A DNA stretch of 64,000 bases from Octopus vulgaris (Eukaryota). Both the position numbers and the translations under genes were made by a program. Positions 6,391 to 25,427 of this stretch are shown here, piece after piece. The stretch lies in NCBI GenBank assembly GCA_951406725.2, contig OX597817.1, positions 66,154,001 to 66,218,000 on the forward strand, in the 5' to 3' direction. Position 1 is the stretch's first letter. Every line of letters begins with the position of its first letter. The notes below the pieces were generated by a model that saw only the letters and a list, made by a program, of their open reading frames with translations, did no database searches and had not been told where the DNA came from.

Positions 6391-6530
6391 AGCTTTGCGC
6401 AGAGGCGGTACCATGGCCAATGAGGTAAATCCGAGGCGTGGTTATTGCTAGTTGAAAACTATTCCCAATACCCCGCGTTGCTATCCATAATAGATAGCAA
6501 ACGCAATTTTTACTCACCTCTGAGGAGGTG
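6391..6530 (+). ncRNA. U4: U4 spliceosomal snRNA, array variant, copy 1
   Basis: AGCTTTGCGCAG start; K-turn GCCAATGAGG..CCGAGGC; TGCTAGTTGAAAACTATTCCCAATACCCCGC; Sm-like AATTTTTA; terminal hairpin CACCTC-TGAG-GAGGTG; 3'-box-like attaaagaataga downstream. Confidence 0.93.
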
Positions 6531-7202
6531 CAATATCAATTAAAGAATAGATATAATATAGCCTTTTGGTTGGAAAACCTACTGCAGTTGTAGTATCAGT
6601 CGTTCTCTGTTTAAATGGTCTCCTCAGAGATCATTTGGTCTCCCATTGATCATTTAGTGCGTATCGTCGTCATTTTTTGGCAATGATGCATAGGAACGAC
6701 AGCTAGTTCAAAATTTAAGAAAGAGAAGGCATTGAAATTACGTGGGTGCGAATGTCTGTGTGTGTGTCCGTGTATATACACGTATGTGCATAGGTTCGGT
6801 CGTGCATGCGTATGTATGAGTGTTTGTACCGATGAGTTTTGTCCTGGGCCGGGAATTAAATTCTGGGTTAGCTGCCGATGGCTTTGTGCGGGAATAAACA
6901 GAAATTACGTGGGAGATTTTGTGTGTGTGTGTGTGTGTGCGTACGTGCATACATGCATGCGTGTGTATGTTTGTTTGTCATTGTATGAGTTTTGTCGAGG
7001 ACTGGGACACAAATTCTGGATGAGCTGCCGATAGCTTTGTGCAGGCACAAACAAAAAATAAACGTCAGTCTAACGGCCTTGACATCATCAAACAAAGGTC
7101 ACTTCTGTATAAAGTCATATACCAAACATATGAAAACAGAAATATGATATAAAAACTACATATTTGGCATTCTTGTATTAGTTAAACAATTAAATATTGC
7201 TA

Positions 7203-7295
7203 GTGGTTATTGCTAGTTGAAAACTATTCCCAATACCCCGCGTTGCTATCCATAATAGATAGCAAACGCAATTTTTACTCACCTCTGAGGAGGTG
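7203..7295 (+). pseudogene. 5'-truncated U4 copy (promoter and first ~47 nt deleted)
   Basis: Identical to the 3' part of the array U4; the junction duplicates attgctag. Confidence 0.85.
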
Positions 7296-8671
7296 CAATA
7301 TCAATTGAAAAATAGACATTAATATAGCCCTTTGGTTAGAAAACTTACTGCAGTGGTGGTCTCCTCAGGACTTACAGTCCCGTTGATCATTTAGTGCATA
7401 TCGTCGTCATTTTTTGGCAATGATGCATAGGAACGACAGCTAGTTCAAAATTTAATAACTCACTATTTCGGTAGCTAAAAGGCACTAAATATTAAAATAT
7501 AAAAGTGAGGTATCAAAGGATAGCAACTGAGCAAAAAACAACATAAAGGGGTGTAAATATCAATATATTTATTGAAAACAAAAGAGGAACTAACGTAATT
7601 AAATTAAAATCAAATTAACATAATTGCTTTCACACAATTTCTTTTGGTGTCTAAACAGCAGTTTCTCATGATTTATAAACACCAATGGATCCAATTTTCT
7701 TCAACAGTTTGCTAAGATGTTTATAATCATAACAACAATTTTCACTTCACTTCGGTAAAGTGCATGTTAGATGGTGCAATATCAATTAAAGAATAGACAT
7801 TAATATAGCCTTTTAGTCGGAAAACCTATTGCAATCGTTCTCTGTTTAAATGATTCCCTTAACTTAGAGTCCCATTGACCATTTAGTGCGTATCGTCGTC
7901 ATTTTTTGGCATGATGCATAGGAACGACTGCCAATACAAAATTTTATAACTTACTATTTCGATAGCTAAATATTAAAACATAACAGTGATAGGTATCAAA
8001 GAATAGCAGCTAAGGAACTATCGTAATTAAATTGAAATCGAATTAACATAATTGCTTTCACACAATTTCTGTTCCTTTTCTTTTGATGTCCAAAGAGCAG
8101 TTTCTCGTGATTTATAAACATCTATGGGCCCTGTTTTTTTTTTGTTTTTGTTTTTTTCAACAGTTTGCTAAGACGTTTATGATCATAACGACAATTGTCA
8201 CTTCGGTAATGTGCATGTGAGATGTTCAAATTTTCTTAGTGTTCAAACTTTCTATGCTCATCTGATTTCTTAAAATTCATATAGTTGAATACTCTGTCCA
8301 AGTCAGCATATTATGTGGTAAAATGCAAAGTGCTAAAGCTAATTTACACTAATGTCCGAATTAGCATTACATAGTTGAATGCGATGATACTCCAATCCAG
8401 AAATAAACTGTTCTTCGGACATTTGAATTTTCTTTTATAGCTAAACACTAAAAATTGTAATTTAAAAATGAATCAGTATGTTGAAACGGTATATATAAAA
8501 ATTAACAGCAAGAATATTATTTACAATTGATGGATATTTGTCCTCATCTTGTTTGTTGTTAACACAACGTTTCGGCTGATATACCCCCAAGCATTAATCT
8601 GGTGTCTTGGGGAAATTTCGAACCTGGGTTCTCATTCCTAAGGTATTTTTCGATGTTGTTATTATTATTAA

Positions 8672-8734
8672 GGTCACTGCCTGGAATCGAACTTGGAGTT
8701 AGTAGCCAGCGCTCTTAACCCTACGCCATATGCC
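8672..8734 (-). other. tRNA-derived (A/B-box) segment in the Penelope 3' end
   Basis: Reverse strand GGCATATGGCGTAGGGTTAAGAGCGC...AGTTCGATTCCAGG; second copy at 19377-19439. Confidence 0.6.
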
Positions 8735-9837
8735 AGTGGGCAATTATGGAGTGAATTTTAGGACTCATAAGTCTAATATTCTCCTATCCTTCCTTGATAC
8801 CGGTTCCCATATGCTGTTCATATCTGCACTTGGTCTGCTTAGGAGGTTGTTGTGTCCTAGCACATGTGCTGCTTCTTTTAGTTCTCGTATTTTCCAGTGG
8901 TGTTCTCTGTCTATTATTTTAACTTTATCCCACAGGGGGAGGTGGTCTCCATTTTTCCATACATGATCAGCTATACCCGATTTATCAATATCTCCTCGTG
9001 TCACAGCTTTGCGATGTTTCTCTATCATTATTTTGAAAGGGCGGCATGTTTCGCCTTTGTATAACCTACGACTACTGCATGCGATGGAGTACACGCAGTT
9101 CTTAGTCATATTCTCTTCTGTTGGTGGTTTTACTCGAAAGAGATATTTGCGAAGTGTTACAATACTTTTGAATACTGTCCTGATGTCATATGGGCTACAT
9201 ATCTTTTGTATCTTTTCGGAGAGGCCTTTCACATAGGGTAGACAGACTGTGAACAGTTTATTGGGTTTATCCTCTCTTTTCTTCATAATTGGAGTGGAGA
9301 GAATGCTTTGGGGGTAGTTGTTGCTCAATAGAGTGTTACTGAGCTTAATCAATTCTTCGTGGTGGGTATCACGATCGCTACTTATATTCATTGCTCGATG
9401 TTTTAGGCACTGAGCAATCCATATCTTTACACTGTATGGATGACGGGAGTTGAAGTTGAGATATCGTCCAGTGAAGGTCGGCTTGCGGTATACGGATGTC
9501 CTGAATAATTACTTGGTGCGTATAATTAATACGTCCAGGAATGCTAGCTGATTGTCTTTTTCTTTTTCCATTGTGAACTGTATGGATGGCTTTATTGAGT
9601 TCACATGATCTAACAGCACTGGAACATCTTCCTGGGGAGGCCAGAGTATGAAGGTGTCATCAACATATCGCAACCATAGGGTTGGTTTTAGTGTTGTTGA
9701 TCCTAAAGTCAAATTCTCAAAGTATTCCATTATATATTGGCTATTATCGGTGATAATAGCGAACCAATAGCTAAACCCTCTTCTTGTTGATATATAGCAG
9801 TGTCCATATTTAAGTAGGTAGTTTCTACACAGAAGGT

Positions 9838-23380: not shown

Positions 23381-23546
23381 GACAGACAGACTGACAGAGA
23401 AGGGGTAACCCCCTTCCTATTCAGCATTCATTCATTTATTTATTTATTTAGTCCTTTACCATTGTATTGGAATGGATTTAAGGATGGTGACCATATAAAT
23501 CTCTGTGTGTGTATGTATGTATATATATGTATATGTATATATGTAT

Positions 23547-23657
23547 GTATATATATATATATATATATATATATATATATATATATATATATATATATAT
23601 ATATATATATATATATATATATATATATATATATATATATATATATATATATATATA
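23547..23657. repeat. (TA)n microsatellite
   Basis: Direct observation. Confidence 0.95.
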
Positions 23658-24341
23658 TTTATAGATGTATTAAACTGATGCTTAATAAAACTACTTTCAA
23701 GTATTTACAAATTCGTTTCGCTTTGGGATACCCATGTTTAATTTTATACAATCTCGGCATCACACTTTCTTTTCGTTTTCCGTTACTTCTACGTCCCTGG
23801 AACGAAAGGCAACCTATTTCATTATTTAACTGTTTTAAAAATTGACTTATCATTAATAGTATTAAATAATATTTTCATTTTCCGAAACATTTTCTTCACA
23901 TGAATATGTTCTCTAATAGTAATGAATTATTTAGTAAAGCGAGTCCCACCTTTTTACATTTCTGGTTTTTACGTTCCAATTGTAATAATTCAGAACATAG
24001 TCAAATTCTCCCGCATGTCACACCCTGTTATTTTAAAGGTGCATTGGATAATGTAGTCGTGTATTTGGATCATGAGGTTGCTGGATCAGAACCGACCTGG
24101 AGCTAAAAACAATTACAAGTGGTAAACTTATGTGTGTTAATGTTTATGTACTCTTGCTGTTCAACATGCTAGAAATAACAGCTTCATTTATCTTCAATAC
24201 ATATATTTTCGTCGTTAAGGTTAGTCCTATTTGGCTTAAAAAAAAAAAAAGATGGAAAGGTCACTGTTGACTCTTACAAAAGACTAGATGGTTACATTTG
24301 AATCCCTAATCATGGTTGAAACACTTAATAAATGACATGTC

Positions 24342-24736
24342 GGATCTTTTCAGTTTGAACGGCAGTTTTTTAAAATAATTTCCACGTAACTAAACACTTT
24401 TAAACTTCGTATACTGGTTGAATGTGTTTATAAAACATCTTTTTCTCTTGGCTTTATTGGGAAGATTCAATAGTTTGTAAGATATTTATTGTTGTTTTTT
24501 CTTCAATTTCAACCAATCAATGACGTCTATTGAGGTAAAAAAATTCTGTGCCCTATGAATATGTCCTTCGTTTAAGAAACAGGTTGGGTTTATTTACATT
24601 TGTGAAGAAAAAAAGATACCCTTACCCCCACCCCTAAAACATTGAAATGCAATAGATCGATAGTAGGGTCATAATTGTGGGTGACAATTTCATATGACAT
24701 CGCTAGAAAAAACTGCCGTTCAAACCGAAAAGATCC
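24342..24736. mobile_element. MITE with ~29-bp TIRs
   Basis: ggatcttttcagtttgaacggcagtttttt ... aaaaaactgccgttcaaaccgaaaagatcc. Confidence 0.8.
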
Positions 24737-25286
24737 GACGTTTTCGCACAGACGCAAATGAATCAGGCGATTTATTTTCCATTTTAAAACGTTTGTTTTT
24801 CAGTCGCTAAAGCAAAGTATACCCAAAATTAGATGACTGGTCTTATTGTCCAGAGAGCCAGCAGTGAATGATGGAATTGATAAAGCTTCGAACACTATAC
24901 CTTACGCCGAATTCAAATCCCGATGAAGATTAAAAAGCATTTCTCCTGCGGATAGGCGAATTAATCAGTATTGCAATAATCTGCAAGTCGAAATAAAAAT
25001 ACGGGAGTGTGTTACCAGTTAATGAAATGTATTTATCTGTATTGTACTGATCCACTGGATTGTAATAAATAATGATATTCCATTTTTAACAATCGAGAGG
25101 CCCTCAGTGTGGTTAATCGATGTGCTAGATATAACAGCGAATACTGCATAATCTACCATGCGTAAATTAGCAGGGACACTAGTAAACAAATTCAAAAACA
25201 ACGAACAACTTAGTTATAGGTTTACCTGGGTTATCATCTCTGCAACTTACAAATAAAATTACAATCTATTATTACATTGATTTCTA

Positions 25287-25427
25287 CACCTCCTTAGAGG
25301 TGCGCAAAAATTGCGCACAGCACCCTCGTGGGATGCCATACGCGGGGTATTGGGAATAGTTTTCAACTAGCAATAACCACGCCTCGGATTTACCTCATTG
25401 GCCATGGTACCGCCTCTGCGCAAAGCT
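25287..25427 (-). ncRNA. U4: U4 snRNA, solitary copy with canonical Sm site
   Basis: nt 1-88 identical to the array copies; 3' stem-loop GCGTATGGCATCC-CACGA-GGGTGCTGTGCGC; Sm site AATTTTTG; hairpin CACCTC-TAAG-GAGGTG; 3'-box-like gtaataataga. Confidence 0.95.

Follow-up and report, generated by a model that had tools for sequence, protein, structure and literature searches.

Three classes of U4 small nuclear RNA gene in Octopus vulgaris, one of them arranged as a tandem array

The stretch of DNA analysed here, called the window, comprises 64,000 nucleotides (nt) of the Octopus vulgaris genome (assembly GCA_951406725.2, contig OX597817.1, positions 66,154,001 to 66,218,000). It contains four tandem genes that encode U4, a small nuclear RNA (snRNA), A1 to A4, and a single U4 gene, S, in inverted orientation. 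In a preliminary description, made from the sequence alone, these genes were divided into two isoform classes. The present analysis distinguishes three: class A is formed by the four array genes, class S by the inverted gene and class T by a gene on contig C18. Together they form a small family whose members are likely to be working and largely interchangeable RNAs.

U4 genes and U4 copies in the window

Six matches to the U4 model RF00015 are found in the window by Rfam. Four are genes on the forward strand, at 6391-6528, 11792-11929, 17779-17916 and 21888-22025 (118.5 to 119.6 bits), one is a gene on the reverse strand, at 25427-25289 (115.6 bits), and one is a partial match near 7200. The Rfam model had been proposed as a check, and the five full-length matches, at 115.6 to 119.6 bits, lie far above its gathering score of 46 bits. 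Successive array units lie 5.4, 6.0 and 4.1 kilobases from each other. Two broken copies had been overlooked, i.e., a truncated copy at 7203-7295, which shows no differences from A1 over its 93 nt and has a promoter score of −0.9, and a fragment at 18895-18935. The spacer between A2 and A3 holds a young long terminal repeat (LTR) retrotransposon, with Pfam matches to a zinc knuckle, an aspartyl protease, DUF7047 and RVT_3 in separate frames.

Two motifs accompany the genes: a bipartite promoter motif near −90 and −58, scored with a matrix learned from 56 of 60 U1, U2 and U5 loci of this genome, and a second motif after the gene. We take these to be the proximal sequence element (PSE) and the 3′ box, respectively. 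The features of the locus are as follows.

6299..6341, forward: bipartite PSE-like promoter of A1, with elements near −90 and −58 (score 20.1; 0 of 13,489 background positions score as high)
6391..6530, forward: U4 gene A1, class A, 140 nt (RF00015 119.6 bits; the terminal stem ends at nt 140)
6475..6504, forward: class A 3′ stem-loop in A1, nt 85-114 (predicted fold −12.5 kcal/mol; domain z −5.0)
6505..6513, forward: class A Sm site in A1, AAUUUUUAC (heptad intact; position 8 is A, position 9 is C)
6537..6552, forward: 3′ box of A1 (score 10.1; reached by 0.24% of background)
7203..7295, forward: 5′-truncated class A copy, nt 48-140 (62 bits; promoter and 5′ half deleted)
11792..11931, forward: U4 gene A2 (A111G, pairing kept; promoter 11700-11742, 3′ box 11938-11953)
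12804..16786, forward: LTR retrotransposon in the spacer between A2 and A3 (203-nt LTRs, 99% identical by self-blast)
17779..17918, forward: U4 gene A3 (Rfam match; promoter 17687-17729, 3′ box 17925-17940)
18895..18935, forward: U4 fragment, nt 30-70, fused to array-type downstream flank (by sequence comparison)
21888..22027, forward: U4 gene A4 (Rfam match; promoter 21796-21838, 3′ box 22034-22049)
25264..25279, reverse: 3′ box of S (score 9.0; reached by 0.4% of background)
25287..25427, reverse: U4 gene S, class S, 141 nt (115.6 bits; predicted 3′ hairpin fold −19.5 kcal/mol)
25343-25313, reverse: class S 3′ stem-loop, followed at 25312-25304 by the class S Sm site, AAUUUUUGC
25478..25520, reverse: PSE-like promoter of S (score 14.4; reached by 0.01% of background)

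Three classes with a similar 5′ domain and different 3′ hairpins

The identity of the five copies over nt 1-88 that had been noted before is confirmed, with nt 89 being the first position at which A1-A4 and S differ. Among themselves the array copies differ only at nt 111, where A111G in A2 turns a U-A pair into a U-G pair. The observation that the 3′ stem-loops differ and yet pair also stands. The class A stem-loop is predicted to form 11 base pairs (bp), with a 5-bp base, a bulged A, a 6-bp top and a 7-nt loop (−12.5 kcal/mol), and the class S stem-loop 13 bp (−19.5 kcal/mol). Compared to 200 shuffles, the fold of the 3′ domain has a z of −5.0 in A1 and A2 and of −4.1 in S. The terminal stem reaches nt 140 in class A and nt 141 in class S, and its 6 bp, on the 3′ side of the Sm site, are the same in A, S and T.

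Class T was found by searching the genome (2.8 gigabases, 227 contigs). It is a single full-length gene with four differences in nt 1-87, a 3′ hairpin of its own (−19.6 kcal/mol), the Sm 9-mer AAUUUUUAG and, at 121.3 bits, the best RF00015 score of the three classes. This brings the intact U4 genes found to six: four of class A, one of class S and one of class T. When the 3′ domains of A and S were used as queries, only the known genes and the truncated copy were matched (5 of 5 and 7 of 7 matches, respectively). Pairwise alignments of the inner hairpins between the three classes are no better than those of shuffles (p = 0.28, 0.05 and 0.16).

The solitary S gene had been taken for the canonical copy, which has to be rejected. 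In the order of Rfam scores T comes before A and A before S, and position 9 of the Sm site in S is a C. Because the 5-bp base with its bulged A is common to A and T, as is the A at position 8 of the Sm site, and S has neither, a variant beside a canonical copy is the wrong frame for these genes. The flanks of the array and of S, which had been called unrelated, are indeed so by blastn (best E 0.045), but the promoter and 3′-box motifs are common to both, at equal offsets.

Promoters, 3′ boxes and constraint

All four array genes have a promoter score of 20.1, compared to 14.4 for S and 8.6 for T, the weakest of the three classes, whose score is reached by 0.9% of background. The background maximum is 15.5 in 13,489 draws, and none of 23 dispersed U4 copies exceeds 5.1. 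Of the three classes, the array has the promoter closest to the bulk U1/U2/U5 consensus. A 3′ box follows the genes of all three classes (scores 9.0-12.5), and both motifs are placed at offsets typical of the other snRNA genes of this genome. Since the same matrix gives −4.1 for U4atac, the start of which may be misplaced, and 12.1 for U12, a low score is no proof of silence.

When the four units of the array are compared, variation is seen at 1 of 140 sites in the gene and at 0 of 70 in the promoter (−100 to −31), compared to 46 of 383 sites in the flanks (Fisher tests against the flanks, p = 7e-6 for the gene and p = 4e-4 for the promoter). For nt 89-140 alone, 1 of 52 sites is variable (p = 0.03). 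As promoter and 3′ box are intact, gene and promoter are constrained and the fold is kept, the variant in the array is likely to function as a U4, and to this extent the preliminary description is supported.

The Sm site

The Sm 9-mers given earlier for the array and for S are correct. All three classes have kept the heptad AAUUUUU intact, and it is predicted to lie single-stranded between two stem-loops. Positions 8-9 are AC, GC or AG across the three classes, while the RF00015 model has GG, and the C at position 9 of class S is no purine. That the array site is non-canonical could not be upheld. An A at position 8 is present in 42 of 42 U1 loci (UAUUUCUAA type; L108-L127, L159-L178 and L207-L208), in 42 of 48 U2 loci (L088-L107 and L179-L206) and in 5 of 6 intact U4 genes, and is therefore the majority base in U1, U2 and U4. 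Position 8 is G in U4atac and in all 25 U5 loci examined (25 of 26 matches, a partial one being left out). The lists of U1, U2 and U5 loci are lower bounds. Judged by the other snRNA loci, the Sm site of class A is ordinary for this genome.

The structural literature, cited here and below from those parts of the papers that were available, points in the same direction. The Sm ring binds the seven nucleotides AAUUUUU in pockets, the eighth pocket being "not specific for G" and the ninth base making no hydrogen bonds (Li 2016, PMC4756616). An internal G125 makes no contact with Gemin5, and changes in U123-G125 cost 1.4-3.3-fold (Xu 2016, PMC5131778). In saturation editing of human RNU4-2, G125A scores −0.317 against a depletion threshold of −0.302 (q = 0.0065) and A126C +0.015, whereas the 13 rows considered for U120-U124 range from −0.32 to −1.39, 10 of them under −0.70 (PMC13253345). 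The same study finds four sensitive regions outside the critical region of U4; as far as the available part goes, the 3′ stem-loop is not among them and single changes in it are tolerated (PMC13253345). In human SmD1, Arg66 is the residue that contacts G125. Its equivalent is kept in the octopus SmD1 (one genome-wide pattern match, E ~1e-24), and no compensating change was seen in this protein, the one Sm protein looked at. The preliminary description had further argued from assembly of the Sm core by SMN and Gemin5. The code for the small nuclear ribonucleoprotein (snRNP) consists of the Sm site and the stem-loop adjacent on its 3′ side (PMC6954390), and the argument fails on position: the variable hairpin is located 5′ of the Sm site, and the conserved 6-bp stem on the 3′ side is the one in the code.

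Dispersed U4 copies in the genome

Besides the intact genes, the genome contains dispersed U4 copies. From 30 of 40 and 30 of 42 matches fetched, 47 loci were compared, of which 31 are distinct. The 3′ end lies at nt 65-75 in 29 of these 31, and the copies fit the pattern of U4 retro-pseudogenes, being cut near nt 68 and without promoter. A1-A4 and S were also considered as such retro-pseudogenes, which was rejected: they are full length, have promoters and show no 3′ cut near nt 68. Because 30 of 31 dispersed copies stop short of nt 89, they are unable to separate A from S. By their 5′ loop, 16 are of the C4 type (A or S), 11 of the C18 type and three of a fourth type, with one being unclear.

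The three fragments with the fourth 5′-loop type are L038, L054 and L056 (C5:10979455, C18:76643619 and C11:99666110). No intact gene for this type was found among the genome U4 matches fetched, and it is possibly an extinct or unassembled U4 class. The copy of unclear type, L023 (C11:51102431-51102553), is decayed, with 10 differences in the first 80 nt, and extends to nt 123. In its 5′ loop it departs from the C4 type of today. Its hairpin is nearest to that of class A (p = 0.008 against shuffles, compared to 0.46 for S and 0.21 for T, in three comparisons chosen after inspection). This closeness is a moderate hint and suggests that class A is old.

Other snRNAs and the question of a variant spliceosome

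Class A had been described as dosage-amplified, for which no support was found. Promoter-bearing loci number at least 35 for U1, at least 43 for U2 and at least 21 for U5, compared to 6 intact U4 genes, and U1, U2, U5 and U6 have tandem arrays in this genome as well. Since U4 is the lowest-copy major snRNA found here, the locus lists being lower bounds, four tandem copies represent no special amplification.

The inference of a variant spliceosome fared no better, as neither a matching divergent set of U1, U2 and U5 nor a co-evolved U4/U6 pair is present in the loci compared. Differences from the reference amount to at most 8 of 164 nt among 35 promoter-bearing U1 loci, at most 10 of 194 among 43 U2 loci and at most 5 of 125 in 20 of 21 U5 loci, and no strongly divergent second set of U1, U2 or U5 appears among these promoter-bearing loci. 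The single promoter-bearing U5 outside this range, L158 (C7:107326485-107326607, reverse), has 16 differences from the main class, many of them in the 3′ hairpin.

Among the 15 of 48 U6 matches examined, there are three 5′-hairpin classes, which differ only in nt 1-24 (L136-L141, at C1:139423726-139428422 and C1:150838706, L129 and L131). One of these classes has four differences in nt 6-24 and consists of five copies in tandem on C1. In predicted co-folds with the U6 of this genome, nt 3-16 and 57-63 of U4 are paired in all classes, and A and S have the same duplex energy with each U6 tested. No co-evolved U4/U6 base pair was found in these matches, A and S being identical over nt 1-88 and the U6 classes varying in nt 1-24 only. 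Clear classes are thus seen only in U4 and U6, and not two divergent clusters for each of U1, U2, U4, U5 and U6.

A separate observation concerns three U2 loci, L093, L100 and L201, which have an equal low promoter score; L093 and L100 share upstream sequence that lacks the promoter motif. This suggests that these U2 copies have been carried into another repeat.

Contigs from sequencing runs

Contigs were compared from 4 of 24 listed sequencing runs, all of them RNA by guess only, with three runs under the label organism A and one under organism E. Such contigs give no ends, strand or level. No run among the 24 is recorded as RNA, which speaks neither for nor against transcription. In 3 of the 4 runs, all of organism A and from three studies, a contig spans the class A hairpin, the Sm site and 45-165 nt of downstream flank, without a listed difference over nt 89-140. 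Two of these three contigs start in other U4 loci, one in the upstream flank of S and one in that of a dispersed copy of the C18 type. In the organism E run, nt 1-88 are matched without difference, and beyond nt 88 a contig continues as a hairpin of class S, in which a G-U pair has become A-U and the loop differs. Class S is therefore conserved beyond organism A.

Of the words sampled from the array unit, a share of 0.40-0.65 is contained in runs with four further organism codes, which are DNA by guess or unrecorded. This is more than the gene body alone could supply; these codes need not be separate species. No contig covers the array upstream flank 6150-6385 in the 4 runs, nor, in run X20 of organism E, the 3′ domain of class A. 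As gaps in contigs are no proof and the comparison had no DNA control, neither absence is used as evidence. For the three organism A runs no loose contig end of class S appears among those listed, three ends not being included in the list, and this too is not counted as evidence.

Interpretation and alternatives

The reading that we favour, with a probability of roughly 0.75, is that of a small U4 family in three classes, the RNAs of which work, are largely interchangeable and do not belong to a special spliceosome. Transcription by RNA polymerase II would begin at the shared PSE-like promoter, with the 3′ box setting the 3′ ends. The intact heptad and the conserved terminal stem would receive the Sm ring, and nt 1-88 would pair with U6 and bind Snu13 alike in A and S. 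The 3′ stem-loop is presumably held only to its fold, so that its inner sequence would have drifted between long-separated paralogs. The identity of the 5′ domain would be maintained by purifying selection, perhaps together with local gene conversion; given that the organism E run matches nt 1-88 without difference, purifying selection alone may be enough. Class A would later have expanded by tandem duplication, like U1, U2, U5 and U6 elsewhere in the genome. Stage- or tissue-biased use of the classes is plausible by analogy and fits this reading.

Several observations weigh against it. In predicted stability, the hairpin of class A falls short of those of S and T by about 7 kcal/mol, and the inner hairpins of the three classes diverge far more than human RNU4-1 and RNU4-2 (4 differences), which could reflect diverged function. 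G-to-A at position 8 is mildly harmful in human cells, where G125A is mildly depleting, and this is a point against full neutrality. U6 likewise occurs in three 5′-hairpin classes, of which one forms a tandem array. The Fisher tests count sites that are not independent of each other, and the matrix used to score promoters is self-built. Two of the three class A contigs are likely assembly chimeras across the shared 5′ domain, as they begin with sequence from other U4 loci. The class A contigs moreover attest presence and not transcription, since the runs are RNA by guess and may contain DNA.

The weaker hairpin (−12.5 compared to about −19.5 kcal/mol) and the mild depletion by human G125A, together with the presence of four class A genes and only one each of S and T, would fit a class A that is a weaker U4 and has been amplified in tandem to restore dosage. 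An A at position 8 is also present in single-copy T, in most U2 loci and in every U1 locus examined, tandem arrays are found for U1, U2, U5 and U6 too, and single changes are tolerated in the human 3′ stem-loop, as far as the available part of the study reports. We consider this explanation unlikely. Another is that the array is a silent, recently duplicated block of pseudogenes. It is consistent with the broken copies at 7203-7295 and 18895-18935, the LTR insertion within the array and contigs that fall short of proving transcription, but variation in gene and promoter is far lower than in the flanks, both the promoter and the 3′ box remain intact, and the single variant, A111G, keeps the pairing, which makes a silent block very improbable.

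A further explanation, also improbable, would make class A part of a coordinated spliceosome, maternal or specific to a tissue, on the pattern of zebrafish and perhaps including the tandem U6 class on C1. U4 and U6 do have three classes each, one of them arrayed, there is a promoter-bearing U5 outlier, L158, and zebrafish has clustered and dispersed sets, most maternal types being repeated according to the available part of that report. U1, U2 and U5 are nevertheless without a strongly divergent second set, the U6 classes vary only in nt 1-24, the duplex energies of A and S are identical, and the array promoter is nearest to the bulk U1/U2/U5 consensus. Furthermore, with 11 C18-type and 16 C4-type loops among the 31 dispersed copies, the array shows no clear dominance in the germline, a weak argument in that A and S are inseparable there. 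A broader proposal holds that three old U4 classes with promoter variants of their own are used by stage or tissue, that arrayed U4-A and arrayed U6 alter the rate of tri-snRNP assembly or activation, and that this regulated switch goes together with a lineage-wide G-to-A change at position 8. It is kept alive by the three U6 classes, one of them arrayed, and is regarded as unlikely.

Other features of the window

Outside the U4 locus, the window contains two open frames on the forward strand. One, of 412 codons (655-1893), has a NOT2/NOT3/NOT5 C-terminal domain (PF04153), and the other, of 282 codons (49388-50236), has DnaJ and DnaJ_C domains. A weak DUF4371 match on the reverse strand (4366-4995), under the Pfam cut-off, is presumably the remnant of a DNA transposon.

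Comparison with known systems and significance

With the U4 RNAs described by RF00015, the octopus genes share the U6-pairing region, the 5′ stem-loop, the 3′ stem-loop, the Sm heptad and the terminal stem-loop, at 115-121 bits. They differ in having AC, GC or AG and not GG at positions 8-9, and in having three unalignable inner hairpins in one genome. Drosophila, too, has three divergent U4 isoforms, U4:25F, U4:38AB and U4:39B, with developmental switching (Lu and Matera 2015, PMC4291461). The same paper reports concerted evolution, orthologous groups usually being detectable only within a genus, and developmental switching of snRNA isoforms is cited there for Xenopus and chicken. Compared to the Drosophila isoforms as described there, A and S in octopus differ only from nt 89 onward, and the genes of one class stand in tandem.

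In zebrafish, each major snRNA forms two clusters, 7-41% different, one maternal and one somatic, with expression exclusive to the egg and a U4/U6 pair that has co-evolved (Pagano et al., bioRxiv 10.1101/858944). Arrayed and dispersed snRNA genes, sequence turnover with structure kept and retrotransposons within arrays are common to both systems, but the two clusters per snRNA and the co-evolved U4/U6 pair were not found among the octopus loci compared. In human, RNU4-1 and RNU4-2 both enter snRNPs, and many dispersed U4 copies are cut near nt 68 (Mabin 2021, PMC8457000), much like the 3′-truncated copies here, 29 of 31 of which end at nt 65-75. The hairpin of U4 may mask the Y12 epitope (PMC8457000). 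The two human genes differ at only 4 of 145 nt (PMC13253345), while the inner hairpins of the octopus classes are far more diverged. No earlier account of such U4 paralogs in cephalopods or molluscs was found in the literature, most subscription journals lying outside the search, and the giant squid genome paper gives, in its available part, snRNA presence and copy numbers only (PMC6962438).

If the classes were stage-specific and splicing were changed by them, this would bear on whether snRNA paralogs regulate splicing, although no finding here indicates so. The A at position 8 is common in U1, U2 and U4 of this genome, though it is mildly harmful in human cells. The markers that distinguish the classes, nt 89-114 for A, S and T and nt 25-38 for T, make isoform counting easy. 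Divergent snRNA paralogs within one genome are a known pattern, and the U4 family of Octopus vulgaris adds a clean example of it.

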